Part shown: one piece after another, positions 22,401 to 52,629 of the stretch | Layout of the letters: every line of letters begins with the position of its first letter | How positions within the stretch are numbered: position 1 is the stretch's first letter | Virus record (IMG/VR): IMGVR_UViG_3300045988_137804 | Coordinates: 1-64,000 of that record | Length of the DNA stretch: 64,000 nucleotides | Source: a virus | Strand: one strand, 5' to 3' | Made by a program: the position numbers and the translations under genes | Notes under the pieces: model-generated | What the model was told of the DNA's origin: nothing | Databases searched by the model: none | What the model saw: the letters and a program-made list of their open reading frames with translations, nothing else

Positions 22401-22663
22401 GAGTTGTTGTAGGTATTGTTGCAAACATTCAAAAGAAAAAAGACAGAACAGGAAAACAGTTTGCTTTTGTATGGTTGTATTCTGCATATGGGCTTATAGA
22501 AGTAACTTGTTGGCATTCTCAATTAAAATCTTATGAAGACTTAATTAAAAAAGGAACACAAGTTTCTGTGTTGTATAGAAAGAGTGATGACAAAGCGATT
22601 GTAAAAGAGATGAAAACATACGAACAATGGCTTTCGGATCGTCACATACAAATGTCAAAATAA
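19457..22663 (+). CDS. dnaE: DNA polymerase III alpha subunit (DnaE-type, PHP domain)
   Basis: PHP start HNHSEYSVLDG, ITEHGN, palm region PDIDTDF, YQEEMM, fingers FNKSHSALYS. 1068 aa. Confidence 0.9.
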   Translation: MASSLHNHSEYSVLDGFSHPEEYLKRAQEIGLHAFAITEHGNEYSWIYFDKLKSKYPDVKMIYGVELYECFDIKVQDPDNKYFHLVALAKNEKGRIALNEIVTKSNFEGFYYKPRTDLKMLKPYAKDLIILSACLASKIAREKDFDKCVDYINEYKSIFPNFFLEMQSHKTEDQSIYNQKILKLSEVTNTPYTITTDSHAATEEDLYYQARHVQIARDNETMTELYDGCYVQSENEIHSIMDKQIGHDNVSKGIEMSDYIADMVDDVSMPFQSPQLPTFPLPDGFKDNFEYLKYLCEDGWKTRKLDELSEEDKEIRRKRLDYELGIIHQMGFDGYFLIVWDFIKWSKHNGVYVGDGRGSGGGSIVDYLLGISQLDPITYNLIFERFLNPERVSMPDIDTDFSDREKVVQYLMDKYGADRVCQIINFSYITPVVAIKDVGRVLKIPYKICDKISKKFTYPTFEECVDNNPSLYEEYADYKELFDIAGKISGRVRQTSVHAGGVGIVDTKVTDYMAMKVGSKGEHVIQVDKKNVEEIGIIKFDCLGLADTLNTIKYAVEYAGIDEWEIDANNPDFLNNKEMYELLCSAKTNGVFQVESQGMKDLLLRLQPSNLEDVSAVLALYRPDSMGALDEYIECKHGRKTVEYMHPDMKPILESTYGCMIYQEEMMDIVRIFGGRTYGGADKFRKAVGKKDVKLIKTESEKIYKEIIDCGYGEDIAKEISDFLASKGNYLFNKSHSALYSLLTLKTAYLKAKYPVEFFCALLNQKRDDYGALNKYILDAKDFGVELLPPHLNRSERGFKVFNGKILFGLEAIKGVGEKFVDALIEERNKKPFENFKDFYERMSPSVSIVVSLAKAGAIPCKDKRQLLINFAAGQYQKKEFTPVKTLPKLSILKEKYGIDGGVIKDKEERIRLYNIEKEKEFNKLQKEKFDKSMQTFCDKYLQNENLWEFEALSVFIDKNPFVEAYQYIQKDFDEVEDGGDGVVVGIVANIQKKKDRTGKQFAFVWLYSAYGLIEVTCWHSQLKSYEDLIKKGTQVSVLYRKSDDKAIVKEMKTYEQWLSDRHIQMSK

Positions 22664-35300: not shown

Positions 35301-35730
35301 TCACGTTCCTGTGTTTGAAAGAATTACAGCATTTGACAAATTTAAAATTGAATCAAAATTCCAAAACCTTAGTCCAGGAGGCGCAATTTCGTATTGTGAA
35401 ATCCCATCAATTAACGTAAATATTCCAGCATTATTGGAAGTAATTAAATTTATTTATGACAATATTATGTACGCAGAAATCAATACAAAAGATTGTTATT
35501 GCGAAGTGTGTGGATACGATGGAGACATTCCACTTATTGACGATGATAACGGTAAACTTGTATGGGAATGCCCTAATTGTGGCAACACAGATAATACAAA
35601 AATGGACATCGCATTTAGAGTTTGTGGTTATGTTGGTACTGCAAAAAATGGTGGAAACCAAGGAAGATATGGAGATATCCACGATAGAGTTTACCACATC
35701 GATGACTTTGAATACGAGGAAAATGAATAA
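32386..35730 (+). CDS. nrdD: anaerobic ribonucleoside-triphosphate reductase (class III), interrupted by an intein
   Basis: ATP-cone start VIKRDCSEVDFDKNKI, conserved MGC|RSFL site split by the intein, C-terminal zinc site CxxC...CPNC and glycyl-radical motif RVCGYVG. Confidence 0.9.
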   Translation: MVRVIKRDCSEVDFDKNKISTAILKAMKNGSGIVKPKIAESIADEIEKECKDREEIDISEIEAMVFDKLITKKQRLTARAYEGYRSTREFQRENENTVDEEILGIVEANNEEWKDENANKNPALNPTIRDYIAGSVSKDATKRFLLSPEIIQSHLEGIIHFHDSDYFIQHMHNCGLVNLEDMLQNGTVISETMIEKPHSFSTACTVTTQIIAQVASSQYGGQSISLAHLAPFVDVSREKIRKEVISEQELVGMEYPEDVLNEIVERRLKKEITKGVQTIQYQLITLMTTNGQAPFITIFMYLNEAKNEREKKDLAMLIEEMLLQRKLGVKNEDGVYIAPAFPKLIYVLEDDNCNESTEYWYLTELAAECTSKRLVPDYISEKVMKELKGDVYTCMGCVDGKELVTYTYNNNLYVESFERMWNRLSDRFEIKHQYNDNNPNLYMDLSDVEIYDTDKGFVNTERIIRNISTSWLDVNFSNGRRLLCTEDHPLTLRDGRTIHASELKLKDRILINSHQYNEENIVFNEDKAWLLGFMLCDGCYQGSLFSSIAAENEDEIADKFSETMKKYFDLDIEKKLQQRGKKGTYYDLIAHSQNEKISVYCNYFAKKFEGLNKIDRHVPNEVFSWNYSSKLAFLAGMIDADGYINSSQNKGFSIVQIGSTNKELALQQMALAQSLGMPAKLYHNHYSKRNPELIRYRVEFYPTDELINYIVCKKKYDNYIDSNVSSYNHESEVTEINKINKKMFSYDVTTTSEHFEISGIYSHNCRSFLTVDRFSDKVGNISNAKNFNGKHKYYGRFNQGVVTINLPDIAFSSDGDMDKFWGIFEERTELCHKALKARHNRLLKTSSDIAPILWQNGAYARLKKHEPIDKLLFDGYSTISLGYAGLYECVKYMTGKSHTDGDVGEKFGLEVMQALNDKCNQWKEAENIDYSLYGSPIESTTYKFAKCLKNRFGDDIFIKLDGFDRNYITNSYHVPVFERITAFDKFKIESKFQNLSPGGAISYCEIPSINVNIPALLEVIKFIYDNIMYAEINTKDCYCEVCGYDGDIPLIDDDNGKLVWECPNCGNTDNTKMDIAFRVCGYVGTAKNGGNQGRYGDIHDRVYHIDDFEYEENE
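33574..34677 (+). mobile_element. 368-aa intein with a LAGLIDADG homing endonuclease inside nrdD
   Basis: Starts at Cys (CVDGKELVT) right after YTCMG. Block B TEDHP. Two LAGLIDADG motifs (LLGFMLCDGC, LAGMIDADGYI). Ends ...IYSHN followed by the +1 Cys of CRSFL. Confidence 0.85.
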
Positions 35731-39518: not shown

Positions 39519-39863
39519 ATGCAGAAAAAGAATTACAAAGGTCGCTGCGAGAAATTAACAGTGCCAAAATCTAAGGATGTCTGCCATATCTATAATGACA
39601 TCCAAAAGTCTTATCTATTACAACTTCAGGACGATCCAAACATCAAAGAGATAAAATGTAATGTCCTTATGCTTGGATTGGAACTTGGAGAATTCACATC
39701 TGATTTTCAGTGTGTTACAGCAGACAACAATCTAATAGTGCGTGAATGTATCTCACGAGATGCTATCGCCAAACCAATGACAGCAAAACGATTAGATGCT
39801 TCAAGAGAGTATTGGTTTCGTCATGGCATAACAGATTGGGGGATTGTAACCGATGAAAAATAA
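39519..39863 (+). CDS. tnsA: short TnsA-like protein (endonuclease N-terminal-domain-like, 114 aa)
   Basis: AAAGGAG RBS. LQDDPNIKEI...GEFTSDFQCV...LIVRECIS...REYWFRHGITDWGIVTDE resembles the TnsA core (..YTPDF.V....EVK....E.yW...g..w.ivte). The expected E and K positions do not look conserved. Confidence 0.45.
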   Translation: MQKKNYKGRCEKLTVPKSKDVCHIYNDIQKSYLLQLQDDPNIKEIKCNVLMLGLELGEFTSDFQCVTADNNLIVRECISRDAIAKPMTAKRLDASREYWFRHGITDWGIVTDEK

Positions 39864-41661
39864 GAGTCTATTTTATAATCCAAAAACCAAAGAAATATTT
39901 CGTGTGTTAGACAGTAAAGGTTCAAAAGTTCTTATCATTAATTGCACAAAGAAACAGATGCCTTATTGGACAGAATTCGATTCAATTTCTTCCTGTCGTT
40001 TAATCACAGAAGATGAATTACAGGACATGACTGGCACACATTTTCAAGAACTAACTGTACCATCAAAAGAATACAGATATGTTCAAGAAAGGTTTTCACT
40101 GATTTCAAATATCATTCCTATCATCGGAAATAAAAGCAAGCGTACTCAGATGATACGAATCATATCTGAAACAAATAATTGCAGTAAACAAACAATCAAA
40201 AACATCTTGTGCCAGTATCTCATCTATCAAAATATTTCTGCATTAGCACCGCAAAAGAGCAATGAAAAAGAACTAACAACAGATGAGAAAAACATGCGTT
40301 GGGCATTAAATAAGTTCTTCTATACAAAGAATAAGAATTCATTATCAACCGCTTACGTCATGATGCTTAAAGAAAAATATACAGATGAATACAACAACTT
40401 ATTACCACACCCAACCATTCATCAGTTCCGTTATTTCTATCGCAAAACAAAAAAGATGGAAACGTATTATATCTCAAGAGATGGCATAAAAGATTACCAA
40501 AGAAATCACAGACCATTGCTAGGAGAAGGAATTAGAACAGTTGCAAATAGCATTGGAACAGCTATGTTGGATTATACAATCTGTGATATTTATCTCGTAA
40601 ACGATAAACAAGAATTAATTGGTCGTCCATTAATGACAGCTTGCATTGATGTCTACAGCGGATTGTGTTGTGGTTACTCATTAACATGGGAAGGTGGAAT
40701 GTACAGTTTGCGTTCTTTGATGTTAAATGTGGTCACTAATAAGAAAGAACATTGTAGAAAGTTTGGAATAAATATCGAAGAATCCGACTGGAATTGTCAT
40801 CAATTACCTGCAACATTAATCACAGATAAAGGTTCAGAATATGCGTCAGAAAACTTTGAACAACTTACAGATTTAGGAGTGTCTATTATAAATCTACCAG
40901 CCTATAGACCAGAGTTAAAAGGATCAGTTGAAAAGTTTTTTGATATGATTCAATCACTTTATAAGCCACAGTTACTAGGAAAAGGTGTCATAGAATCTGA
41001 TTTCCAGGAACGTGGCTCACATGATTATAGAAGAGATGCTTGTCTAACATTAGAACAATTTGAAAAAATAATTCTTCGTTGCATCATCTATTATAATACA
41101 CAGAGAATTATCAAAAATTCACCACTGATTGAACAAAATATTCCGCCACATTCTTGTGACATATGGAACTATTATTTGACCTATAATGATGACTTTTTGA
41201 TAAGAATATCGCCACAGAATCTACTTTTATGTTTGCTACCAAGAACGAAAGGAGTGTTTAAAAGAAATGGTTTAAACGTCAATAGTCTCCGCTATAAGCA
41301 TAAAACATACACCGAAATGTATCTTGTAGGAGGAGATGTAACAGTAGCCTACAATCCAGAAGATGTTTCTTACATTTGGCTCATTGAAGAAAATGGAACG
41401 TATGTAAAATTTGAATTAATCAATTCTCAGTTCTATGGAAAGGATTTATCATTTGTAGAAAAATATATGGAGTCATCTAAGAAGCTAATTGCAGAAAATA
41501 CCGATGATAATTTACGAGCAAAAGTTACGCTTTCAAAAGATATAGATTTTGTAATTTCTGAAAGTGTACGTTCTAATGTAAGCACAAAAAATATCCGCAA
41601 GAATCGTCAGAAAGAACAGGAACTTACTCATAGAGATTTCGTAAAGGAGTATGAATTATGA
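39853..41661 (+). CDS. tnsB: TnsB/MuA-family DDE transposase
   Basis: DDE candidates in MLDYTICDIYLV, LITDKGSEYAS and RPELKGSVEKFF. 602 aa. Overlaps tnsA-like by 11 nt. Confidence 0.8.
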   Translation: MKNKSLFYNPKTKEIFRVLDSKGSKVLIINCTKKQMPYWTEFDSISSCRLITEDELQDMTGTHFQELTVPSKEYRYVQERFSLISNIIPIIGNKSKRTQMIRIISETNNCSKQTIKNILCQYLIYQNISALAPQKSNEKELTTDEKNMRWALNKFFYTKNKNSLSTAYVMMLKEKYTDEYNNLLPHPTIHQFRYFYRKTKKMETYYISRDGIKDYQRNHRPLLGEGIRTVANSIGTAMLDYTICDIYLVNDKQELIGRPLMTACIDVYSGLCCGYSLTWEGGMYSLRSLMLNVVTNKKEHCRKFGINIEESDWNCHQLPATLITDKGSEYASENFEQLTDLGVSIINLPAYRPELKGSVEKFFDMIQSLYKPQLLGKGVIESDFQERGSHDYRRDACLTLEQFEKIILRCIIYYNTQRIIKNSPLIEQNIPPHSCDIWNYYLTYNDDFLIRISPQNLLLCLLPRTKGVFKRNGLNVNSLRYKHKTYTEMYLVGGDVTVAYNPEDVSYIWLIEENGTYVKFELINSQFYGKDLSFVEKYMESSKKLIAENTDDNLRAKVTLSKDIDFVISESVRSNVSTKNIRKNRQKEQELTHRDFVKEYEL

Positions 41662-42917
41662 TTAATATGAATAAAGTAATCAAAGAACTTCCTGATATGC
41701 TGTCCGGAAATGAACTTCAGAAAGCAATGTCTATTATTCCAAAATACGACAAACAGATTCAGGAAGATGGAAGTATGACCGAAAGACTTTTGAAATTATC
41801 TGACCTTTATAGCATTTATATTCCATCACAAATGTCTACTGAAATTTATAGCAAACTATATCTTGGAATCATTCGTTCTATGCAGAAAAAAGGAAACAAG
41901 TTAACTGTACAACAATTCAATTCAACTTATAGAACGATGCAGAATATTAAGAATAAAACTGGCAATCAGCAATATGATGGAATCATAGGTGGATCAGATT
42001 CATTTACAATTATTGGTGCAAGTGGGATAGGAAAATCATCAGCTATTTCTCGTGCATTGAATCTGATTGAAGCAAATCATGTAATAGAAATTGAACAGCC
42101 TTACACTAAAATACTTCCATGCTTAACAGTGCAATGTCCATTCGATTCTTCTGTAAAAGGATTATTACTTGAAATTCTTCGCAAAGTTGATGAGCAGTTA
42201 GGAACAGATTATGCACAAACAAAAAGGTTCACGACTGATATGCTTATAGGTGCTGTTAGTCAGGTGTGTTTAAATCATATTGGCTTGCTTGTTGTAGACG
42301 AAATACAGAACGTAGTTAATTCAAAGAACGGCAAGAACTTAATCGGATCATTGACGCAGCTAATCAACAATTCAGGCATTAGCATCTGCATGGTTGGAAC
42401 ACCAGATAGTGAAATATTCTTTGAACAGGCTATGCAATTAGCTCGTAGAAGTGTCGGATTAAAATACACAGCTTTGCCATACGATGAACATTTTTGCGAA
42501 GTATGTGAATGCTTATTTTCTTACCAATATGTAAAAAATATCACATATATAAATAGCACGACTATAGAATGGTTGTATCAACACAGTGCAGGAGTTATCT
42601 CTATTGTTGTATCATTAATTCATGATGCACAAGAGATTGCAATCTTAAATGGGAGAGAAGTATTAGATATTAAATCGTTAGACGAAGCATACAACAATAG
42701 ACTTTCTATGTTGCACGATTATATTAGACCTACTATGAGAAAGAAATCTATCGGCAATAATAAAATAAAGAAACAAAATATCATTACAACTTTGTCGATA
42801 AAAAATAGCGCAGATATTCAAACAGATTTAATACAAAGTCTTGCGAAAGAATGTAAGAAAGATGGAACAGATATTGTAGAAATACTGAGTCAACATATTA
42901 CAATTGAGGTGATTTAA
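41658..42917 (+). CDS. tnsC: TnsC/TniB-type AAA+ transposition ATPase
   Basis: Walker A IIGASGIGKSSAI, Walker B LLVVDEIQN. ATGA overlap with tnsB. Confidence 0.8.
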   Translation: MINMNKVIKELPDMLSGNELQKAMSIIPKYDKQIQEDGSMTERLLKLSDLYSIYIPSQMSTEIYSKLYLGIIRSMQKKGNKLTVQQFNSTYRTMQNIKNKTGNQQYDGIIGGSDSFTIIGASGIGKSSAISRALNLIEANHVIEIEQPYTKILPCLTVQCPFDSSVKGLLLEILRKVDEQLGTDYAQTKRFTTDMLIGAVSQVCLNHIGLLVVDEIQNVVNSKNGKNLIGSLTQLINNSGISICMVGTPDSEIFFEQAMQLARRSVGLKYTALPYDEHFCEVCECLFSYQYVKNITYINSTTIEWLYQHSAGVISIVVSLIHDAQEIAILNGREVLDIKSLDEAYNNRLSMLHDYIRPTMRKKSIGNNKIKKQNIITTLSIKNSADIQTDLIQSLAKECKKDGTDIVEILSQHITIEVI

Positions 42918-44318
42918 ATGATTGGATTTATGCCTAAATTATATCCAGATGAATTAGTGTATAGTTGGATTGCTAGGTATCATGTAAGAACTGGACATTA
43001 TAGTTATCAGCAAACAGCAAAACATCTACTAGATAAGAAAGCAAATATTGTCTCGAAAAAGTTTTTAAACGAATACTCAAATGAATTTTTTAACATCATC
43101 AAAAAGAATATTCCAATAAAAGAGTTAGTAATAAATCATAGTATGCTGTCAGCTTATATTAAATTTTTGCCAAAAGATAAGCGCAATAATCTAATAGAAT
43201 CCTATGAAAACAATTTAAGATATAAAGAGTCATCAATTGGATTTAAGACAAGAAGTAATGGTATTAGTATGCGATATTGTCCTATATGTGTAAAGGAAGA
43301 TCGAGAAAAATATGGAGAAACTTACTGGCACAGAGAACATCAATTTGTTGGAATTAATGTATGCACAAAGCATAAATGTTATCTTATAGATTCCAAAATG
43401 TCTGTAAAAAGTATTGATAAGTCTGAGTTTTATACCGCAGAATATGTCATAGAACAACATGATGATGTTAAGATTTCCAATAATGAGTATGAGATAAAGT
43501 TTGCCAAGTATTTTACAGAAGTCATAAATACAGAGTCAAATAATGACTCAAATATTGTGGAATATCTCAATACTATATTATTGAACTCAAAGTATAGAGC
43601 AAATGGATGTATGCTAAAAGATTTTAATAAATTGTACGATGATTATTCTGAATTATGCGAAAAGATTAATGTAAATATAATTTCTTCACAACCATCGTTA
43701 AGAGAGATATTAAAAAATAAACGCAGAACATTGGATATTTGTATCCTTGGAATGCTATTGAATATTTCGCCTTACGATCTCGTGAATAGAGTATTGCCAA
43801 ATACAAACAAAGAGGATATCAGAGAGCAAGTCATATTTTTAAGAGATGTAAAAAAGATGAGTTATAATCGTATTGCAAAAGAATTAAACGCAAGTAGAAG
43901 AGCAGTTGGTACAATATATCATAGTAAAAAAACTGAAAATGATTTAGATGTTCTTAAACTTCTTAAAGATGAACTGCCAAAATTCTATAATGGAGATTTA
44001 ACTAATGGAAGACCGCAAAAAATAACAGTATACACAGTTGAAAAACAATTTGATATTCCACAAAAAGTATTAATAAATAATAAATCCTATTATAACGAAA
44101 TAATCAAGTATGAAGAGTCTTATCCTGAATATTGGGCGAGAGAATTAGTATGGTCTTATAATAAACTAAAGGAAGATAAAGCATATATAAGTCAAAATAA
44201 AATAACCAAACAAATAAATATTCGTAAGGAGCAACCTGTAAAAGCTATACCATACATCTCTAAATATACAGACAAAGAAACTGCTGAAGCTATTAAATCA
44301 TTATTGCAAAAATCGTAA
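42918..44318 (+). CDS. tniQ: TniQ/TnsD-family target-selection protein with C-terminal HTH
   Basis: N-terminal LYPDELVYSWIARYHVRTGH, zinc module RYCPICVKED...HREHQFVGINVCTKHKCYL, and a later HTH-like MSYNRIAKELNASRRAVGTIY. Starts immediately after the tnsC stop. Confidence 0.8.
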   Translation: MIGFMPKLYPDELVYSWIARYHVRTGHYSYQQTAKHLLDKKANIVSKKFLNEYSNEFFNIIKKNIPIKELVINHSMLSAYIKFLPKDKRNNLIESYENNLRYKESSIGFKTRSNGISMRYCPICVKEDREKYGETYWHREHQFVGINVCTKHKCYLIDSKMSVKSIDKSEFYTAEYVIEQHDDVKISNNEYEIKFAKYFTEVINTESNNDSNIVEYLNTILLNSKYRANGCMLKDFNKLYDDYSELCEKINVNIISSQPSLREILKNKRRTLDICILGMLLNISPYDLVNRVLPNTNKEDIREQVIFLRDVKKMSYNRIAKELNASRRAVGTIYHSKKTENDLDVLKLLKDELPKFYNGDLTNGRPQKITVYTVEKQFDIPQKVLINNKSYYNEIIKYEESYPEYWARELVWSYNKLKEDKAYISQNKITKQINIRKEQPVKAIPYISKYTDKETAEAIKSLLQKS

Positions 44319-44378: not shown

Positions 44379-45524
44379 TTATTTTAAAGCACCGCTTGAA
44401 TTAAAGCTATATTCTTTTCCACCTATTTTAATTATTTCATTACAAGCCATTGATCCATCATCTTTAAGATAATATTTTGTGCCTTTATCTGTAACCCAAT
44501 GATTTCTCATCATTGCTCCGACTGGGATACAATCCTTATCTTTATTATACCAATACCATTTATTATTTTTTTTTAACCAACCAGTTACCATTGAACATCC
44601 TGGAAATCCAGAGACTTCTCCACTTGATACAAAATAATAATCATTTGTCCCATCATTATATTCGCCTAAAACTGCTGAACCAGTTTGATGATTTTTACCT
44701 CCACTTGTTCTCAATAGATACCAAAAACCATCAATTTTTCTCCAACCCGTAACCATCGCACCGATTGCATAATATGGCGTATTAGATTCACTTAAATAAT
44801 ACCAGTCGCCATTATCACAAAGCCAACCAGTTTTCATACTGCAATCATCATTAAAATAATACCAATGTCCATTTATTGATTCCCATTTATTATTTATAGC
44901 ATAACCATTTTTGTCAAAGTAGTACCAAACGTTATCTAGACATTTCCACTGTTCCTTTGGGTATGATTCGTCATCATTTCTATACCACCAGCCAATATTG
45001 TCTTTTTTCCAACCAACAGATATTTTATTAGTAATATCTTTCTTGAACTGATTCCAAATAGAAGAGTCACAACCGTTTGCACCCCAACCTGTCCAACCTG
45101 GACAAGACTTAGAGCATACATCCCAATGACGAACAACATGAGCTGCATCGATGTTATATTTCTTCATAAGTGTTTTAGTAAGTTCAACTGTATTTCTATA
45201 TGTTCCATCAGAAATCTTTCCGTCTGTAGAACACATTTCGATGCTAATTGAATTACTATTCGTACATTTTCCAAATAAGTTATTTGAACCGTAATTTCTT
45301 CCAACAGCCCAAGCCGTGTCACTATCGGAAACTACCTGTACTACGTTCTCTGTATCAACGAAATAATGAGCAGATGCACCACGGTTAGTACTTTTAAAGT
45401 AGTTGCCGTTGTTCACAGATTTGTCCCACCAATTTCCTGTGTAGTGAATTACAATATACTTTCTTCCGTTATTACCTTTTGTGTAATTAACTTTAGTAAG
45501 GTTTTGAATAAGTTTGTAAGCCAT
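44379..45524 (-). CDS. endolysin: N-acetylmuramoyl-L-alanine amidase (Amidase_2/PGRP-like) plus cell-wall-binding repeats
   Basis: IVIHYTGN...ASAHYFVD...AWAVG...SISIEMC amidase core. The C-terminal half holds about 6 GW..(x)..WYYF/WYYL repeats. Confidence 0.85.
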   Translation of the reverse strand: MAYKLIQNLTKVNYTKGNNGRKYIVIHYTGNWWDKSVNNGNYFKSTNRGASAHYFVDTENVVQVVSDSDTAWAVGRNYGSNNLFGKCTNSNSISIEMCSTDGKISDGTYRNTVELTKTLMKKYNIDAAHVVRHWDVCSKSCPGWTGWGANGCDSSIWNQFKKDITNKISVGWKKDNIGWWYRNDDESYPKEQWKCLDNVWYYFDKNGYAINNKWESINGHWYYFNDDCSMKTGWLCDNGDWYYLSESNTPYYAIGAMVTGWRKIDGFWYLLRTSGGKNHQTGSAVLGEYNDGTNDYYFVSSGEVSGFPGCSMVTGWLKKNNKWYWYNKDKDCIPVGAMMRNHWVTDKGTKYYLKDDGSMACNEIIKIGGKEYSFNSSGALK

Positions 45525-45561
45525 AAAAATACCTCCTTTGAAATAAAAGAACTTTATAGAT

Positions 45562-45598
45562 ACAAAAAGAGAGCAACGAATAAAATCGTCACTCTCTG
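45562..45598 (-). terminator. candidate intrinsic terminator between the fibre genes and the endolysin
   Basis: AGAGAG/CTCTCT plus ACG/CGT helix with an internal loop, followed on the minus strand by TCTTTTTG. Confidence 0.4.
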
Positions 45599-45624
45599 AA
45601 TTAATAAAATTAGATATTTAGTTG

Positions 45625-46887
45625 TTAGATTCCTCTGGTTACTAGTAATGTTCCACTTGTAAGATCTGGTAATCCTGTAAGTTTTCCATTAGATACCCCT
45701 AGTGTAATAGAAGTGGCAGATGGTGTTCCATATGTTACAGATTTATAATAACTTGTTCCGTTGAATGCATACATAGTAGTGGTTGAAGTTCCCCATGAAC
45801 TTGAACTGGAAGCTGTAGCATAACCATACGCTTTGATTGTCCCAGATGTAGTTTTAAATGATACTGTTGGGTTTGTAACATCAATCAAATAAGCTTCGCA
45901 ATTGTTATTGGACGATGTTGAAGATGAAGAATCTCCAGTATATGTACCAGTTACTCCAAGAATTGATACTCCAGATTTGATATTAGAAGCAATAATTTTA
46001 TTTTGTTCTGTAGAAGAAATTGATACTTTTCCAGAGCCATTATGGTATCCGGATGGAATAGTATATGTTCCAGCTTTAGTAGAAATTGTTCCAGTAACCG
46101 CACCATTATTTGTCATTGTACCTGTAGTTTTACCACTACTAATATAAGCGGTTTTACCAGAGAGAATGTTTGTTGCTGTAGCTGTTGCATCTGAAGTGTT
46201 TGTGCCTGTGGAAGTACCAGAAGAGGAGACATCGAGTGTTCCAGTCAATTTAACGCCGTTAATTGATGTAAATGTAACACCTTTTTTTACTTCTCTAACA
46301 GAAGCATTACCAAATTTGCTTGCATCCACAAGCAAAGTCAAATCTTGATCACCTACATATGCGCCGATTTTATCATCATTATTAGGATTCCAAGTCCCAG
46401 TTATTTTTGCAAATTTTAAATTATAACCTCCAATCGAGCTTACATGTGTTTCTACTGAAGACACGGTATGTGCAACATCTGGATTTCTAGGTAATGTTCC
46501 ACTAATATTTACGCCATTCGCACTTGTAAAAGTATAGCCTGATACAACAGCGTCTTGTGGCGCGTCACCAAATTTATTAGCTCTTGTTGTTGTTGTTAAA
46601 ATATCGCCCTGTTGAACAATTGCTTTGTTTGTATCTGCATTAGATCCCAAATTATTTACATTTTGTGAAATACTAATACTTGCTGATGTACCGCTTTTAT
46701 TATATATAGGATCTGTACCAACTGAGCCATATTGAAACAAATCTGTTCTATGTTCAAGCGTACCAGTAATAGCAGTACCACTTTTATTATGAGCCTTTAC
46801 GCCACTTGCCATACCACTCGCAGTAACCGTATCCCCTGTCAAATCAATCAGAGTTTTTCCATTATAAACAACTTTATTTGTCGCCAT
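45625..46887 (-). CDS. tail fibre / structural repeat protein
   Basis: G/T/S-rich with repeated G.TA.I.G(T)L and SGKT.GTM units. Located in the fibre cluster. Confidence 0.45.
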   Translation of the reverse strand: MATNKVVYNGKTLIDLTGDTVTASGMASGVKAHNKSGTAITGTLEHRTDLFQYGSVGTDPIYNKSGTSASISISQNVNNLGSNADTNKAIVQQGDILTTTTRANKFGDAPQDAVVSGYTFTSANGVNISGTLPRNPDVAHTVSSVETHVSSIGGYNLKFAKITGTWNPNNDDKIGAYVGDQDLTLLVDASKFGNASVREVKKGVTFTSINGVKLTGTLDVSSSGTSTGTNTSDATATATNILSGKTAYISSGKTTGTMTNNGAVTGTISTKAGTYTIPSGYHNGSGKVSISSTEQNKIIASNIKSGVSILGVTGTYTGDSSSSTSSNNNCEAYLIDVTNPTVSFKTTSGTIKAYGYATASSSSSWGTSTTTMYAFNGTSYYKSVTYGTPSATSITLGVSNGKLTGLPDLTSGTLLVTRGI

Positions 46888-46899
46888 ATAATCCCTCCT

Positions 46900-48618
46900 T
46901 TATCCTATTGTTACAGTAGTACCAGAGCTATTTGACTCTTCCTTATACGGAATCGCACTTACTGATACGTTATCTTTCATGACCTTACCGCTTGTACTAA
47001 GTGACTGTGTGGTAGCTGACGGAGTTACACTATATGAGCCTGAATAAGTCTCTGGAAGTTTAGCGATAATTGCTTTAAGAATTGAAGTCACATCTGAGCC
47101 ATAAGATGAGAGAGAAGATAAGTCTCCCAGTTTTGTATTGATTTCTGATTCTGTGTAATAACGATCATCGTGCGTATGACTTGAAGCTGCTTTTCCATTA
47201 AGAGCGGTAGTAATTGTACTCTGTGTCATAGTACCATCTGTTGCAGTACCCGTACCTGTATAAAGTTTTGTAAGACCTGCTGTTGATGTTGTTCCTGTAC
47301 TGTAAGTAGTATTTGTAGGAACTACCCATGTACCATCTCCACGTAAAAATGATGCTTGTTTTCCAGCCGCAGGAGCCGGAACTAAACCTGCTTTTCCAGC
47401 AGCACTTGCTGTAGCGGCAGTCATATTGCTATAAGTTGTATTATTATCCGGTGGAACAGTCCAAGTTCCATCCTCTCTAAGATATTTTGTAGTACCTGCT
47501 GTTGTAGATGGAGCAGGTACAAGACCAGCCTTTGCTCCAGAACCAGACTTAACAAAATTTGAATATGTTGTGTTGTTATCTGCTCCCCAAACAGCAGTAC
47601 CATCCGCTGACCATCTAAGAATTTGCCCAGAAGACCCTCCGGATGGAATATGTTTATTTCCAGATGTTGTTGGGTGAGTATATACTGTATCTGTGAATTT
47701 TGCCCCGGATGGAACATCTGCATTAACTGTATGATTATTTACTTTTGATGCATTTGTTGCAGTTGAAGCATTTCCACTTAAAGCACCTTTAAAGGTTGTT
47801 GCTCTGATTGTTCCAGAAGACGGCTGAACAGACAATCCAGCACTTGAGAAAACTTGATCCGTAACAGTTGTTGGCGAGAATCCTTCTGTAGCACTATTTG
47901 AAGCACCCCAAACCAATGATCTCCAGTTTGTATAATCTGAATCTTTTACAGCTGCCTGTGTTACCTTTGTGTCCGTATTCGTATCACTTCCAGGAATACC
48001 TAATCCTGTAATATCTGCCTTTGTAACAGCAGTAGCAGCACTAACATGTCCTGTTGCATCAACTGTAACTTTGTAAAGTCCAGAAGATTTTGCTGTGTAA
48101 CTTGGATGGGTATAAACTGTATTATTATCAGTTAATTCGATAGTTGTGTTCCCAGATTGGTTCATAGTAAAAGTCCCTTTACTAGTGCCATTTTGTTTGA
48201 CAGTCACTGTACCATTACCAACTGACGGTATTGTAGCAGAACTATAAGCAAGAGAACCAAGTCCAAGCCATGATTTCAATGCGTCTTTACTGACATCCTT
48301 GATTTTTGCAATATTTGAACCACCGTCTCCGCCTGTATATCCTGCAATGAATTTAATGTTATCTCCTGTAATTCCACTTCCGCTATAACCAATCTTAATA
48401 TTTTTTGATGTATTTCCATAATCGACTACAGTAGTAGCCGAATCCGCACTTGTTGCTTTAGTCGCAGTATCTGCATTTCCCTGTAATTTTCCAATAAATG
48501 TTGGAGCTGTAACTGAGTCGCTTACATATAATTTTGACAAAAGCCTCGAAACTCCCGTTACGATTAGATTGCTTAACTGAGCCAAGTTAACTCCTCCTTT
48601 CGTATATTTAAAAATCAA
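46900..48618 (-). CDS. tail fibre protein
   Basis: Shares modules with 54527-57607 (VYTHPSYTAKSSGLYKVTVDATGHVS; GLTKLYTGTGTATDGTMTQ; SSHTHDDRYYTESEINTKL). His-x-His fibre-type motifs. Confidence 0.65.
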   Translation of the reverse strand: MIFKYTKGGVNLAQLSNLIVTGVSRLLSKLYVSDSVTAPTFIGKLQGNADTATKATSADSATTVVDYGNTSKNIKIGYSGSGITGDNIKFIAGYTGGDGGSNIAKIKDVSKDALKSWLGLGSLAYSSATIPSVGNGTVTVKQNGTSKGTFTMNQSGNTTIELTDNNTVYTHPSYTAKSSGLYKVTVDATGHVSAATAVTKADITGLGIPGSDTNTDTKVTQAAVKDSDYTNWRSLVWGASNSATEGFSPTTVTDQVFSSAGLSVQPSSGTIRATTFKGALSGNASTATNASKVNNHTVNADVPSGAKFTDTVYTHPTTSGNKHIPSGGSSGQILRWSADGTAVWGADNNTTYSNFVKSGSGAKAGLVPAPSTTAGTTKYLREDGTWTVPPDNNTTYSNMTAATASAAGKAGLVPAPAAGKQASFLRGDGTWVVPTNTTYSTGTTSTAGLTKLYTGTGTATDGTMTQSTITTALNGKAASSHTHDDRYYTESEINTKLGDLSSLSSYGSDVTSILKAIIAKLPETYSGSYSVTPSATTQSLSTSGKVMKDNVSVSAIPYKEESNSSGTTVTIG

Positions 48619-49295
48619 TATTCGATAAAGTCATCGAACTCTATTTTGTTTTCGTATATCTTGTTTGAATTTGGGATAGAATAAATCCCGTGAATTTGAT
48701 CATTATAAGACGGTCTATAAATTTCTGTTCCTTCATGGATTCTAAGACCTGTAAATAAAATGTATCCTTGTGTAAACGTATTTTCCAAATTTGGGTTTGG
48801 GTAAAACATAATATAAATCTTTCCATCATCTGCATTTGATCTAAATTTTGCCCAAACCAATATCACTTTTCCTTTTGTAGTGTCTACAATACTCCACGAG
48901 TTACCGTTTGTATTATATTTTTCTGTATACGAACAACCATGTTCTAAATGTAATCGAAAATCCGCATCACAATCCTCAGAAACATAAGCGTACATGCTTA
49001 CTGTGAAATCTCCATTTTTTATTCTTTCTTTTTGCCAATCGAGAATATAAGAGTAAACCATGAATCGTTTTGTATTATTCCAATATTTTCGTTTCTCCTC
49101 TGATACGGGATTAATTTTTTTACAAGTATCAAATCCATAAGGAAGAAAAATATCCGTCTTATAGTTAGATTCACAGGTACAATTACTATTTGCTATATTT
49201 TGTTTTCCTAAATATAAATTTTGCGGGGGGGGGGTAACAGAATAGTTTACATCAATTATCCCATTTTCATTAAGTTGCGTCATTCTATCCTCCAA
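48615..49295 (-). CDS. hypothetical fibre-locus protein carrying a C10 tract at codons 21-24
   Basis: 226-aa ORF overlapping the next gene's start by 4 nt. C-terminus ...FDDFIEY like its neighbours. Confidence 0.55.
   Translation of the reverse strand: MEDRMTQLNENGIIDVNYSVTPPPQNLYLGKQNIANSNCTCESNYKTDIFLPYGFDTCKKINPVSEEKRKYWNNTKRFMVYSYILDWQKERIKNGDFTVSMYAYVSEDCDADFRLHLEHGCSYTEKYNTNGNSWSIVDTTKGKVILVWAKFRSNADDGKIYIMFYPNPNLENTFTQGYILFTGLRIHEGTEIYRPSYNDQIHGIYSIPNSNKIYENKIEFDDFIEY
49225..49234. repeat. G10/C10 homopolymer inside the 5' end of the 48615-49295 gene
   Basis: gcGGGGGGGGGGta counted directly. Encodes TPPPQ on the coding strand. Confidence 0.95.
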
Positions 49296-49313
49296 AAATC
49301 CATTTAAATAAGG

Positions 49314-49709
49314 CTAAAATTCAATGAAATCTGCCGATGAAATTCCACTTTCATTAAAAGTACATTTTGATGTTATTTCTGTGTCTATGCGGTAATATAA
49401 GTCGTAATAACCATCTATAACCACTTCTCCAAGTGTAGATGGAATACCACCATTAAATTTATTCCAACAACCGATAGCTCCCCACCAGTTACTGCTATAT
49501 GTATTGTTCATACAGAGATAAGTATTACCTTTCTTTAGATAAACTCCACCGTAACTACTTGAAGTCCAATATTCATCACCTGTATAGACCTCAACATCAT
49601 CGTGACCCACATCTGCGAAAGCAGCAGTCATCGGATTTACATTTTGAATAAACCTATATTTAAAATCTGGATTACTTTCTGTTATTTTTGAATTGTCATA
49701 AGTTCCCAT
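49314..49709 (-). CDS. hypothetical fibre-locus protein
   Basis: 131-aa ORF. C-terminus ...SSADFIEF. Confidence 0.5.
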   Translation of the reverse strand: MGTYDNSKITESNPDFKYRFIQNVNPMTAAFADVGHDDVEVYTGDEYWTSSSYGGVYLKKGNTYLCMNNTYSSNWWGAIGCWNKFNGGIPSTLGEVVIDGYYDLYYRIDTEITSKCTFNESGISSADFIEF

Positions 49710-49960
49710 TTGCCTGACGTGTTGTAATTACATAATGAAACATTAAACCATGCATTTTCGTTCTTGTATACATGTGTTGCAAATGAGTCAGATTCTGAGA
49801 ATAAGTTAAAAGAACCGTCAGATAAGACGGGAGTATGATGAAAGACTCTTACCCATACTGATCCATCTGATTCAGTATAAAAGTTTGAGTCATACATATT
49901 AATAATAGGAGAGGTAGCAAATGCAGTTGCAAGGATGTTTCCATTTTTACAAATATTCAT
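49682..49960 (-). CDS. hypothetical fibre-locus protein (N-terminal KNGN motif)
   Basis: Starts MNICKNGNI. Overlaps the downstream ORF by 28 nt. Confidence 0.45.
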   Translation of the reverse strand: MNICKNGNILATAFATSPIINMYDSNFYTESDGSVWVRVFHHTPVLSDGSFNLFSESDSFATHVYKNENAWFNVSLCNYNTSGKWELMTIQK

Positions 49961-49962
49961 AA

Positions 49963-50523
49963 TTACACCTCCTCAATCTGTATTGCTACGATTTTATCTG
50001 AAGCAATTGAACCAGATTTAGTAGAGTTGTCAATAGCATATTCTGCTGGCATAACCTTGATATTTGAGAATGTAATTCTTCCTATACCATTCGAATAGTC
50101 ACTACGAACTCCTAAGTATTGTCGTGTCCATTTGTCGTCTTTATTATTAAAGAATCCAGATACAAATTTTGATCCAGATTTTGCACTAAGAACCAAATCT
50201 TTGTTTAATACTTTATTTACAACAGTACACATCGAGTTTCCACTAGACCAATAATATGTATTATCATTTTTGTTAAACGTTGATCCTTGCGCCCATATAT
50301 CAAAATTATCTGCAACATTTTCTTGAAATCCGTCCCAAGAAATAAGAAGCTCAATGTAATACCTTTTAGTTCCTTCAAATCCAGCAATTGATTCTCCAGT
50401 TAATGTTGAGTTATTAGTATCTTTCCTTGGAACATATGTAACACTTTTGACATTATTCATCAACACTCCACCATGCTCATACATTTCAGTTCCAGTTACA
50501 TTACCATTCTTATATATACTCAT
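49963..50523 (-). CDS. hypothetical fibre-locus protein (N-terminal KNGN motif)
   Basis: Starts MSIYKNGNV. 186 aa. Confidence 0.5.
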   Translation of the reverse strand: MSIYKNGNVTGTEMYEHGGVLMNNVKSVTYVPRKDTNNSTLTGESIAGFEGTKRYYIELLISWDGFQENVADNFDIWAQGSTFNKNDNTYYWSSGNSMCTVVNKVLNKDLVLSAKSGSKFVSGFFNNKDDKWTRQYLGVRSDYSNGIGRITFSNIKVMPAEYAIDNSTKSGSIASDKIVAIQIEEV

Positions 50524-50524
50524 A

Positions 50525-50770
50525 TTAAACCACCGCCTTCCGGTAATTTAGATTTCCATAACTTCTCTTGTTGGTCTGTTTTGTCATATAATAATATATT
50601 TTTCCTGGCGTTATATGGCAATACTGATTTGTTATTGTATATATATCATTACTTATTCCGGAAAGAACATATGGATTTTCTTTTGTATATTTCTCAGAAT
50701 TTACTAATATATTCATCGCATCTGATTCATATATATTTTCTTTTTTAATATTTCCATTTTTATTTATCAC
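50525..50770 (-). CDS. hypothetical fibre-locus protein (N-terminal KNGN motif)
   Basis: Starts MINKNGNI. 81 aa. 4-nt overlap with the upstream LamG gene. Confidence 0.45.
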   Translation of the reverse strand: MINKNGNIKKENIYESDAMNILVNSEKYTKENPYVLSGISNDIYTITNQYCHITPGKIYYYMTKQTNKRSYGNLNYRKAVV

Positions 50771-52575
50771 TGCTCAATAAATTCTCCTTGTGTCATTAGA
50801 GTACCTGTATTAGTAATAGATACAGGTGTCTTATATAAGTTCATAACATCTTCAGCAGAGAGTGCTGTGGCGTAGATACGAAAGTCAGAAAGATAACCGT
50901 TAGTCCAATTACCTTTTGGGATTCCATTATCAGAATTTTCCGATCCTCCAATTGTCCCTTTTGTGCCAACTCCTTGTAATGTCCCAACTTCATCTTTTGT
51001 CGAAACTAAATTTCCATCTACGTATAATTTTTTGGCTGTGTTACTTCTTGTTACACAAATATGATGCCAACAATTTGTGGTCACAAGATAATCAAATTCT
51101 GTATGTACTTCATCATCAAGTCTTATTACACCTCCAAGAAAGAATACGGCTACTCCAACACCAACGGCTGTTCTTGCAGTATATATAGTGTGCACAGTAT
51201 TTTTTGTAAAATAAGCCCAACAAGCAATAGAAAAATCTGTAGCTGTAGAATTGATTGGATTTTGGACTCCGATATAATTTGAACTACCATTAAATTTATA
51301 ACAACAATTATATCTAGGTGAATCATTATAGATGGTAGGAGCAGAAGAGGAAGTAATCCATCCGTGATGACCAAAGCCAGAAGTATCATAGATTGTGTTA
51401 TCATACATTTCTGGAGTATCTTTTAGAGATGTCATATAAGGAGTGGGAGATGAACCAAGTTCCACTTTTGCATTCTTTACATAAAGATCAGCATTATATC
51501 CGCCTCCGACACAAAAGTAATCAGAATCTTTGCCAGTATACAAATCTCTTAATGTCACGGTTACAGAATATCTTGTCCATTCATCACTTTTAACATCATC
51601 CATTAAATCTCCAAACTCGCGTCTGTTCCAGAAATCAATAGAAGAAGTTGTTGTACTCCAATACTGAATATAAGGACTTCCGCTATCTATAGTTCCTTTT
51701 ACATCAACTGAAAAGGTTACAACATCTCCTGTTTTTAATCCGGAATTCTTACGTTCAAAATTTATACAAATCCCATTTGAATTAAAAATGCCAGTATTTC
51801 CAGTTTTAAAATGCCAACCTTCCGATGTTACTTCGTTGATGATGATATTATTTATTACACCATCACCCCAGTTTCTCCCATTCCAATCAATTAACCCTGA
51901 AGAATCTAATAAGTTTCTTCCAATGATATTTCCATCAATCATACTCATCGGATAATGGCACATTAACCCTTGAGATAAAAGACGAACTTCTTTAGGAGAT
52001 ATGGCATTATTGTAAATACGATAATCATTAAACATATGATATTCTGAATTGTAAATCATCTGTGTGTCATAAGCAAATGTAGAAGAGTTACTAACTTTTC
52101 CGCCTTCAGACCATTTTAGTTGTCCATTAATATAGATATTAATAGTAGGATTTTTATATACAACTGCAACATGTGTCCATTGATAGGATGGAAGTACACC
52201 TTTTATAAAATTTCCACAAAATATTGTATTTTCAGCATCATTCATCCAACTCCAATGAAAGTCATTACATGTAGGATATTGAAATAATGAAAACTTTCTA
52301 CTATTGTTTGCTGTCATATTATCGTTTCCAAATATCCTTGTGCGATTTGTAGTACTTCCTTCTTCCGCATTTACATATATCCAGAAAGCAATAGTAAGTT
52401 CATCATTATTTAGAACCTTTTCTGTACCTTCAGCCGGAATCAAAACTCCGCCTTTATTTAAACACTTTCCAAGTTTTCCGTCTTTGTAAGTTGCTCCTGT
52501 AACTTGTAAATCTACGTCCAGTAATCCCTGATTATTAGTATGTCCGTTCAGTGGCAGGTGTATCATCAAACTCAT
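50767..52575 (-). CDS. double LamG/concanavalin-like lectin-domain protein (putative receptor-binding protein), paralog A
   Basis: Two LamG-type units (ELTIAFWIYV...WTHVAVVY...IYINGQL...DYRIYNNAISPKEV and FSIACWAYF...WHHICVTRS...LYVDGNLV...DFRIYATALSAEDV). C-terminus NTGTLMTQGEFIEQ. Confidence 0.65.
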   Translation of the reverse strand: MSLMIHLPLNGHTNNQGLLDVDLQVTGATYKDGKLGKCLNKGGVLIPAEGTEKVLNNDELTIAFWIYVNAEEGSTTNRTRIFGNDNMTANNSRKFSLFQYPTCNDFHWSWMNDAENTIFCGNFIKGVLPSYQWTHVAVVYKNPTINIYINGQLKWSEGGKVSNSSTFAYDTQMIYNSEYHMFNDYRIYNNAISPKEVRLLSQGLMCHYPMSMIDGNIIGRNLLDSSGLIDWNGRNWGDGVINNIIINEVTSEGWHFKTGNTGIFNSNGICINFERKNSGLKTGDVVTFSVDVKGTIDSGSPYIQYWSTTTSSIDFWNRREFGDLMDDVKSDEWTRYSVTVTLRDLYTGKDSDYFCVGGGYNADLYVKNAKVELGSSPTPYMTSLKDTPEMYDNTIYDTSGFGHHGWITSSSAPTIYNDSPRYNCCYKFNGSSNYIGVQNPINSTATDFSIACWAYFTKNTVHTIYTARTAVGVGVAVFFLGGVIRLDDEVHTEFDYLVTTNCWHHICVTRSNTAKKLYVDGNLVSTKDEVGTLQGVGTKGTIGGSENSDNGIPKGNWTNGYLSDFRIYATALSAEDVMNLYKTPVSITNTGTLMTQGEFIEQ

Positions 52576-52612: not shown

Positions 52613-52629
52613 TTTTTTTTTTTTTTTTT
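52613..52629. repeat. T17 (A17 on the coding strand) homopolymer between the two LamG paralogs
   Basis: 17 consecutive T counted (52613-52629). Lies 37 nt upstream of the ATG of the 50767-52575 gene. Confidence 0.95.

Follow-up and report, generated by a model that had tools for sequence, protein, structure and literature searches.

What does a run of ten cytosines do near the start of a small gene in an AT-rich phage genome, and can it act as a genetic switch? The run lies at positions 49,225 to 49,234 of a 64,000-nucleotide (nt) stretch of DNA (positions 1 to 64,000 of the IMG/VR virus record IMGVR_UViG_3300045988_137804), hereinafter the window, within a minus-strand gene of the tail-fibre locus that we denote gene B. 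The phage is uncultured, has a genome of ~205 kb and comes from the human gut. An earlier note, made from the sequence of the window, proposed that the run is a candidate site of slipped-strand phase variation. Comparison of the window with related loci leads us to consider it probable (roughly 0.7) that the C10 tract is a hypermutable simple-sequence repeat (SSR) that serves as a slipped-strand ON/OFF switch, that is, a contingency locus, for gene B.

The poly-C tract and its natural length variants

Direct reading of the sequence identifies the run, GGGGGGGGGG, at window positions 49225-49234, as ten consecutive G on the plus strand and C10 on the coding (minus) strand, just as the earlier note described it. 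This is the sole G/C run of more than 5 nt in the entire 64-kb window, the runners-up being six runs of 5 nt. The GC content of the window is 33.2%, and the number of G10 runs expected by chance, under models of independent, identically distributed bases or first-order Markov models, is only ~0.0005-0.002, which bears out the suspicion that such a run is improbable in AT-rich DNA. The tract indeed encodes TPPP (ACC CCC CCC CCG) but it is located at codons 17-20 (nt 50-59 of the coding sequence), not at codons 21-24 and 61 nt into the gene as originally placed. The difference stems from the gene start: the listing of open reading frames (ORFs) stretches gene B upstream to a TTG at 49295, but the start most likely is the ATG at 49283, the position chosen by the gene callers on public contigs, which yields a protein of 222 amino acids (aa). 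Across the long ORFs of the window, CCC accounts for only 3 of the 385 proline codons (0.8%), and 89% of the prolines outside the tract are encoded by CCA or CCT, yet the tract itself reads CCC CCC CCG; the rarity of CCC therefore indicates that the homopolymer is maintained at the DNA level rather than by the choice of amino acids in the protein.

The computed consequences of length changes in the window allele are drastic. Loss of one C leads to a stop after 24 codons and gain of one C to a stop after 32 codons, in agreement with the anticipated truncation near 25 residues. By tract length, C9 and C12 give products of 24-25 aa, C8 and C11 give 31-32 aa, and C10 gives 222 aa. At ten nucleotides within an ORF, the tract is above the length at which SSR contingency loci are recognized (~7-8 or more G/C, within an ORF or a promoter), and the frame change separates a full-length product from a stopped one, a rule that the natural alleles follow as well.

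These natural alleles were collected through a word-index protein search that yielded 19 homologues, after which DNA was fetched for 24 related loci from public metagenomes, namely contigs of the Hadza/Nepal study and several other metagenome assembly sets. The tract was read between the invariant flanks GTTA and GCAA; two clusters, P0027 and P0029 (both OFF), were left out at the DNA level. With the window included, the tract is in frame (ON) in 8 of the 25 loci and out of frame (OFF) in 17 (Table 1).

Table 1. Alleles of the two homopolymers and the resulting state of the gene
Gene	Tract	Segment between GTTA and GCAA	State	Loci
Gene B	C6A	7 nt	ON	L003-L006
Gene B	C8A	9 nt	OFF	L007, L029, L030
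Gene B	C9	9 nt	OFF	L014-L016, L024, L025
Gene B	C10	10 nt	ON	window, L001, L002
Gene B	C9A	10 nt	ON	L028
Gene B	C11	11 nt	OFF	L026
Gene B	C9AC	11 nt	OFF	L027
Gene B	C8ACC	11 nt	OFF	L018, L019, L021
Gene B	C3AC5ACC	12 nt	OFF	L017, L020, L022, L023
Gene A	A7		ON	
Gene A	A9		OFF	
Gene A	A10		ON	
Gene A	A11		OFF	
Gene A	A14		OFF	
Gene A	A15		OFF	
Gene A	A16		ON	

The comparison of tract length among related phages, which had been proposed beforehand, provides the strongest single result, obtained within one strain. Two contigs, L014 (ERZ1748955; 3,447 bp) and L016 (ERZ1749280; 1,404 bp), match the window without a mismatch and differ from it by one gap of 1 nt, which falls in the tract and makes it C9; a third, L015 (ERZ28621256), also matches the window with 0 mismatches and carries C9, apart from a scaffold N-gap (the apparent 10-nt indel in this contig is this gap and was rejected as biology); and L001 (ERZ1748977; 22.7x coverage) is identical to the window, C10 included. 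C9 and C10 are thus found with no other difference over up to 3.4 kb. Length polymorphism among near-identical genomes recurs on a second background, where L025 (C9) and L026 (C11) are separated by only 2 single-nucleotide differences in 3,513 bp. The 226-aa protein P0030 reads TPPPQ at the tract, and its C-terminal 170 residues are identical to P0034, the stopped-allele product of L025/L026. The apparent co-occurrence of C9, C10 (deduced from the protein P0030) and C11 on one allele background is an indirect hint of reversible switching.

A C-rich run is retained throughout the close clade (at least 82% protein identity), so that the homopolymer is conserved among relatives, as the phase-variation proposal had called for. 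The full-length relatives (222-226 aa) read TPQQ, TPPQ, TPPQQ or TPPPQ at the tract, and the distant homologues (41-56% identity) have a 3-residue gap in place of PPP; together, this gap and the varied number of prolines indicate that the tract is a clade-specific insertion in a linker that tolerates changes in length.

The variation came to light through the length heterogeneity of protein clusters at 90% identity, in which 5'-truncated calls of 148, 152 and 170 aa are mixed with full-length proteins of 222-226 aa, and such heterogeneity could serve as a general screen for switches of this kind. The truncated entries (P0020, P0022, P0023, P0025, P0027, P0029, P0032 and P0034) are OFF alleles automatically called as "proteins" from an internal methionine. 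Restart at Met75, the source of the 148- and 152-aa calls, would proceed without a Shine-Dalgarno (SD) sequence, and restart at Met97, where an SD-like GGAG is present, would forfeit much of the fold; functional truncated products of gene B are therefore unlikely. A scan of IMG/VR and Joint Genome Institute (JGI) metagenome contigs with the flank pattern returned 0 further tract variants, and the sole match of a second JGI scan (L031) was dismissed as a chance match.

Integrity of the OFF alleles and alternative explanations

When an in-frame tract was substituted, with no other change, into each of the OFF alleles, an ORF of 222-226 codons with the usual C-terminus was restored in 17 of 17 cases. 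Among the close relatives, net frame-breaking indels in gene B and in its upstream neighbor, gene A, occur only at the two homopolymers, poly-C in the former and poly-A in the latter; other apparent frame-breaking indels in pairwise alignments turned out to be compensating clusters in divergent loops, that is, alignment artefacts. The ratio of nonsynonymous to synonymous substitution rates (dN/dS, Nei-Gojobori method) is 0.16-0.39 for all allele pairs with measurable divergence, including pairs of OFF alleles, so that, the tract aside, the gene is intact and evolves under purifying selection. Given that the tract is the sole lesion and that dN/dS is low, gene B appears to have stayed functional while the clade diverged, with tract frameshifts that are recurrent and young. 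Judging by the sequences, this pattern is characteristic of a contingency locus and not of a decaying gene.

Several observations weigh against this interpretation. The majority of the loci are OFF (17 of 25). All 7 contigs of the P0022 lineage have a tract that is both interrupted (C3AC5ACC or C8ACC) and out of frame, a pattern suggestive of stable loss. In a divergent lineage, the gene-B homologue of L008 (2790-3000) and L009 (250-465) suffers from several 5' frame disruptions, leaving only a 152-aa 3' ORF, identical in two independent samples, and L008 encodes PP at the tract site as CCA CCA; this homologue would be either a decayed copy or a shortened gene. Gene A contains nonsense mutations in L002 and L025/L026. 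The predominance of OFF loci, the apparent stable loss, the lesions in L008 and L009 and the nonsense mutations in gene A all fit a dispensable, often-lost gene. Furthermore, gene B matches no family in Pfam or PHROGs, and its presumed virion location and sugar binding are suggested by a medium-confidence structural model and the domain context. Finally, two of the C9 contigs, L014 and L016, have low coverage (4.4x and 1.6x, respectively), and short-read platforms are prone to errors at G/C homopolymers of 9-10 nt.

Most of these points would follow if the tract were a non-adaptive mutational hotspot in a dispensable gene, with OFF alleles being early pseudogenes rather than one state of a reversible switch. 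We regard this explanation as unlikely, albeit deserving of serious consideration. It accommodates the excess of OFF loci, the interrupted, out-of-frame tract in all 7 contigs of the P0022 lineage, the multiply disrupted 5' end in L008 and L009 and the nonsense mutations of gene A, but not the lack of a second lesion in the ~200 downstream codons of any OFF allele or the dN/dS values of ~0.2-0.3 even between OFF lineages. Nor would a mere hotspot account for ON and OFF states, and for C9, C10 and C11, on the same allele background, for the persistence of the homopolymer against a strong codon bias away from CCC, or for the variable G tracts in unrelated genes of the same locus in distant relatives (see below). 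Another possibility is that the true tract is invariant and its apparent variation comes from stutter of the polymerase chain reaction during library preparation or from base-calling errors. Homopolymers of 9-16 nt are known error hotspots, and the low coverage of L014 and L016 points in the same direction; nevertheless, an artefact of sequencing or assembly is very improbable because the variants recur in independent samples and studies, with C9 on the window allele in six contigs (three of them read at the DNA level), C8ACC in 3, C3AC5ACC in 4 and C8A in 3. The variants differ by as much as 5 nt, the A interruptions found in some of them cannot arise by stutter, an OFF allele is present in a 208-kb contig at 36x coverage (L017) and an ON allele in the 22.7x contig L001, and the in-frame variants of differing length are predicted as intact proteins, with all four of the tract readings listed above.

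The remaining two alternatives place the effect of the tract at the level of expression or of the protein. RNA-polymerase slippage or ribosomal frameshifting could restore the frame in some transcripts, so that the tract would control dosage, possibly alongside switching at the DNA level. The A9-A16 tracts of gene A are within the range where recoding is well known. Transcriptional insertions have been found to concentrate in homopolymeric runs, but these insertions prevail in A and T runs rather than in C/G runs (Traverse and Ochman, PMC5574713). No stimulatory element is conserved downstream of the tract, and the alternative frames close 5-13 codons after the tract, so that no second product is encoded. 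For the same reason, a programmed frameshift or slippage site, or a fusion to another ORF, was rejected: both alternative frames close within 13 codons, and gene callers find only 5'-truncated remnants. Recoding is accordingly improbable as the explanation of the C tract; it is plausible for the long A runs of gene A and less so for C runs. The idea that only the PPP motif in the protein matters, as a rigid linker or a pause dependent on elongation factor P, the homopolymer being incidental, draws on the fact that the tract encodes prolines in a predicted linker between two segments. However, the number of prolines varies (1, 2 or 3) and there are none in the distant homologues, the codons of the tract are at odds with those used for proline in the rest of the window, and L008 encodes PP at this site without a homopolymer, which leaves this explanation hardly credible. 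The switch thus remains the interpretation that we favor.

The gene B product and the fibre locus

The structural model of the gene B product, obtained with medium confidence, is a beta-sandwich resembling carbohydrate-binding modules (CBMs), specifically a CBM4/22-like jelly roll; similarity to the folds of solved CBMs was detected, and the top matches in BFVD include many tail, tail-fibre and baseplate proteins. At the sequence level, gene B has no significant match in the PDB, and membership in a CBM family finds no support in Pfam, PHROG or PDB sequence searches. The tract falls in a low-confidence linker (predicted local distance difference test, pLDDT, ~50) between an N-terminal adapter segment (x-KNG-I-I) and the beta-sandwich core that starts with NLYLGKQ. 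A full search with hidden Markov models among 1.84 billion representative proteins recovered only 35 members of the gene-B family, of which about one third are proteins of 565-1470 aa where the module is located at the C-terminus or between Laminin_G_3 domains. The module junction in these Laminin_G_3 virion proteins reads ...GFEFIEDESKQSIYKNGQIA...; in P0039 and P0040, it reads ...GFEFIEDESKQSIYKNGQIATKYELQNNLWSGTQ..., and the Laminin_G_3 part of both ends in EFIE, similarly to the 602-aa protein of the window (...GEFIEQ). The start motif of the module, x-KNG-x-I, also opens the four small genes of the window (MINKNGNI, MSIYKNGNV, MNICKNGNI and MTQLNENGII). Because of the EFIE and KNG junction motifs shared with the fused Laminin_G_3 proteins, gene B looks like a split-off, stand-alone copy of a domain of lectin-like tail or virion proteins. 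Comparison of gene B, using hhalign, with gene A, the 186-aa gene and both Laminin_G_3 proteins of the window revealed only the short shared N-terminal motif and no domain homology.

A related pattern extends across the locus (window 44379-52575, minus strand), where four successive small genes begin with x-(K/E)NG-x-I and several genes end with (D/E)F-I/K-E-x. In other phages, these two terminal motifs abut within a single polypeptide, at the P0039/P0040 junction (...GFEFIEDESKQSIYKNGQ...), which suggests that the small genes might be split-off domains that dock through their terminal segments.

The minus-strand block comprises, in the 5' to 3' direction, a gene for a 1026-aa protein with tail-fibre and minor-tail PHROG matches, genes for 649-aa and 602-aa proteins that match Laminin_G_3, four small genes (81 aa, 186 aa, ~216 aa for gene A and 222 aa for gene B), genes for 561-aa and 420-aa proteins, and an endolysin gene encoding Amidase_2 and choline-binding domains (Table 2). 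The matches of the genes neighboring gene B to PHROG tail and tail-fibre families, the CBM-like fold and the presence of the module as a fused domain of Laminin_G_3 virion proteins in other phages support the fibre or receptor-binding context that the earlier note had assumed. A further suggestion, that the next gene overlaps gene B by 4 nt and is translationally coupled to it, does not hold. Such an overlap requires an upstream in-frame TTG that lacks a ribosome-binding site, whereas public contigs use the SD-preceded TTG at 48585, which most likely is the true start of the 561-aa fibre gene, 29 nt downstream of gene B and with a strong ribosome-binding site of its own. This gene is probably co-transcribed with gene B, and no terminator-like site was found between the two; given this arrangement, any downstream effect of the OFF state would be exerted via polarity rather than coupled reinitiation, which is speculative.

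Table 2. Coordinates of the principal features of the fibre locus in the window
Feature	Position	Strand	Remarks
Putative hypermutable C10 tract (G10 on +)	49225..49234	-	gene B codons 17-20; variants C6A to C11 and interrupted forms in 24 related loci
Gene B, 222 aa	48615..49283	-	ON (in frame) in the window; N-terminal x-(K/E)NG-I-I adapter segment, C-terminal DFIEY; predicted stand-alone lectin/CBM-like beta-sandwich module
Shine-Dalgarno GGAGG	49289..49293	-	5 nt upstream of the gene B ATG (49283); direct reading; conserved in all relatives
Tail-fibre-like gene, 561 aa	46900..48585	-	TTG start behind AAAGGAGGAG; start 29 nt past the gene B stop; called 561 aa on public contig
Gene A, neighbor upstream of gene B	49314..49960	-	split in the window into 92-aa (49682-49960) and 131-aa (49314-49709) ORFs; frame change at poly-A tract
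A5 remnant of the gene A poly-A tract	49685..49689	-	window, OFF; followed by TAA stop 49682-49684
Small gene, 186 aa	49963..50523	-	N-terminus MSIYKNGNV; same N-terminal motif
Small ORF, 81 aa	50525..50770	-	N-terminus MINKNGNI; same N-terminal motif; start overlaps the stop of the 602-aa gene (GTGA)
Laminin_G_3 (ConA-like lectin) tail/virion protein, 602 aa	50767..52575	-	ends ...GEFIEQ; elsewhere the gene-B module is fused after this kind of C-terminus

Gene A presents a parallel case. In the relatives, it is a single gene of 215-219 aa, with a poly-A tract at the point where the gene is broken in the window. Most of the gene A OFF alleles have no lesion other than the tract; L002 and L025/L026 additionally carry stop codons. 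All four ON/OFF combinations of genes A and B are seen in human-gut metagenomes. The break in the window reads CAA AAA TAA, and if tRNA-Lys were to slip by -1 at the stop, translation would join the two halves again in an almost perfect match (...TIQK-ITESNPDF... compared with ...TIQKNITESNPDF... in L003).

Homopolymers vary in more distant relatives as well, in different genes. In L010-L013 (IMG/VR records of uncultivated viral genomes with 27-28% GC and 42% identity to gene B), the homologue of gene B lacks a tract, and G7-G9 runs are present in three other fibre-locus genes (L010 5011-5019, 1463-1470 and 7000-7006). The L010 fibre gene directly downstream of the gene-B homologue, with the N-terminus MANLKDLVVNGAARIVGKLYV (compared with MAQLSNLIVTGVSRLLSKLYV in the window fibre), carries G9; L013 and L010 are identical over 8,609 bp except for G7 in place of G9 in this gene, and G7 breaks the ORF. 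Another of these tracts is G8 in three contigs, resulting in a stopped ORF followed by a 138-aa ORF, and G9 in L012, resulting in one fused ORF. A further search of IMG/VR with the L010 fibre protein returned the same four contigs only. Homopolymer switching in the fibre locus hence seems to recur within this group of phages.

Taken together, these observations allow us to propose a mechanism. While the phage genome is being copied, the nascent strand would slip out of register with its template in the C run, adding or removing one or two C's; replication slippage is presumably the cause of the tract variation, and switching may well be reversible within one population. Segments of 7 or 10 nt between the flanks would keep the frame and yield the full 222-226-aa protein, and segments of 9, 11 or 12 nt would stop translation after 22-37 codons. 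In the ON state, the product would consist of the adapter segment and the lectin-like module; in the OFF state derived from the window allele, a 24- or 32-aa peptide would be made. The location of the tract in the linker between the adapter and the beta-sandwich would make in-frame length changes tolerable. The gene B product most likely is an accessory carbohydrate-binding module on the tail or baseplate, and is presumably incorporated into the virion. Switching would then produce virions with or without this module and, in combination with the poly-A tract of gene A, up to four virion types, potentially affecting adsorption and providing a bet-hedge against variable surface glycans of the host.

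On a broader scale, one can envisage a fibre-locus "phasome" as a common strategy in a broad clade of gut phages that are uncultured, AT-rich and ~100-400 kb in size, a generalization that we offer tentatively and rate somewhat below an even chance. Under this scenario, lectin-like modules that are fused in the Laminin_G_3 tail proteins of some relatives would be split into small ORFs that retain the ...FIE / KNG... junctions; homopolymers would reside in different genes in each lineage, namely module genes A and B here, and a fibre gene plus another ORF in the relatives with 28% GC; and each population would continuously make combinatorial virion variants.

Other features of the genome complete the picture. 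A T17 run (A17 on the coding strand) at 52613-52629, in the 84-nt spacer between the Laminin_G_3 genes and ~37 nt upstream of the 602-aa start codon, could be a third length-variable tract, one that acts on expression. In L003 (scaffold_2749), a gene for an IS110-family transposase (DEDD_Tnp_IS110/Transposase_20) at 497-1618, on the minus strand, lies just upstream of the 186-aa gene, at the site occupied in the window by the 81-aa ORF and the final part of the 602-aa Laminin_G_3 gene. A Tn7/Tn5053-like transposition module at 39853-44318 (plus strand) abuts the endolysin gene and encodes three proteins: one of 602 aa that carries a Mu-transposase C-terminal domain, the ATPase TniB/AAA_22 (419 aa) and TniQ (466 aa). 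The gene for NrdD (anaerobic ribonucleotide reductase, 1114 aa) at 32386-35730 (plus strand) is split by an intein with a LAGLIDADG homing-endonuclease domain. The phage encodes a DnaE-type polymerase (19457-22663), along with a RecD2-like helicase and an NAD-dependent ligase. Matches of this polymerase in the phage collection show at most ~34-39% identity, the closest being human faecal fragments (up to 38.6%) and Brevibacillus phage Sundance (34%), and neither megablast of 48000-50600 nor tblastn of gene B against the 50,697 phage records of INPHARED gave a match; on these grounds, the phage has no cultured relative. A scan of GTDB genomes for a prophage or host found none; judging by the Amidase_2 domain and the choline-binding repeats of its endolysin, the phage probably infects a gut Firmicute.

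Comparison with known contingency systems

To our knowledge, experimental demonstrations of simple-sequence contingency switches in phages are confined to Campylobacter phages and, as of very recently, T-even phages. The comparative evidence, namely length polymorphism, the tract as the sole lesion and purifying selection, supports the slipped-strand reading of the earlier note and, with it, the presence of a contingency switch based on an SSR in the tail locus of this uncultured phage of the human gut, with natural ON/OFF polymorphism across metagenomes. This is a textbook-looking switch in a widespread phage, with ON and OFF consensus states of the same strain in different samples, so that slippage-based hedging of host recognition in gut phages becomes testable on existing public reads. 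Two further implications are that such genes are silently truncated by gene callers (here, to 148, 152 and 170 aa) and that a small, uncharacterized family of lectin-like modules emerges as a candidate host-range determinant.

The closest parallel appears to be in Fletchervirus, which reportedly carries a G/C homopolymer of ~9-10 nt in a gene of the host-recognition region of an AT-rich genome, with frame shifts that give rise to phage subpopulations. The locus described here shares with it the G/C homopolymer within a phage gene of the host-recognition region and the AT-rich genome. The likeness, to judge from sequence searches, is one of mechanism only: megablast and tblastn against INPHARED, which should include those phages, detected no homology to the Fletchervirus polyG genes. 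In contrast to Fletchervirus, the present phage is uncultured, ~205 kb in size, from the human gut and probably Firmicute-infecting; the switched gene codes for a small, lectin-like module that stands alone, not for the main receptor-binding protein; the adjacent gene has a tract of its own (poly-A); and the evidence for the switch comes from comparative metagenomics, not from experiments. The hypermutable polyG tracts of Campylobacter phages are attributed to Sorensen et al. (2021, Cell Rep 35:109214) in the relevant passages of PMC12823448 and PMC10877375.

In phages T2 and T4, contingency loci (agt, rIIA) undergo reversible polymerase-slippage frameshifts at simple-sequence repeats within ORFs, which have been interpreted as bet-hedging; most of these repeats are A/T runs of 6-9 nt that reside in genes for anti-defence or regulation, and the tail-fibre ("infection") genes of coliphages contain fewer SSRs than expected (Gomez, Barrick and Waters, bioRxiv 10.1101/2025.10.21.683753). 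The tract analyzed here, by contrast, consists of C over 10 nt, in sharp conflict with the base composition of the genome, and is located in the fibre locus.

Poly-C/G contingency tracts are found in surface genes of Neisseria and Haemophilus. The phage locus resembles such bacterial SSR loci in the position of the homopolymer near the 5' end of a surface-interaction gene, the ON/OFF change upon gain or loss of 1 nt, the intact downstream ORF and the purifying selection, but it is viral, such that the population is a burst and the phenotype is virion composition. Another bacterial example is the polyG loci of Campylobacter jejuni, cj1421/cj1422 (PMC8713573). With respect to the CBMs of other phages, such as the BppA tripod of Tuc2009, the CBM-cenC baseplate protein of phi812 and the N-terminal modules of CBA120 TSP4, sequence identity is only 8-13%, and the module discussed here is distinct from the baseplate and tail CBMs in that it is a separate small ORF and genetically switched.

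Diversity-generating retroelements (DGRs) and other means of phage diversification are mentioned alongside polyG tracts in a passage of PMC12823448. No reverse transcriptase, template repeat or invertase was seen among the ORFs examined around the fibre locus, although no dedicated search was made. With the DGRs (Mtd of Bordetella phage BPP-1) and the invertible fibre segments (Gin of Mu, Cin of P1), the proposed switch shares the underlying logic, heterogeneity of receptor binding within a phage population, although the mechanism is different.

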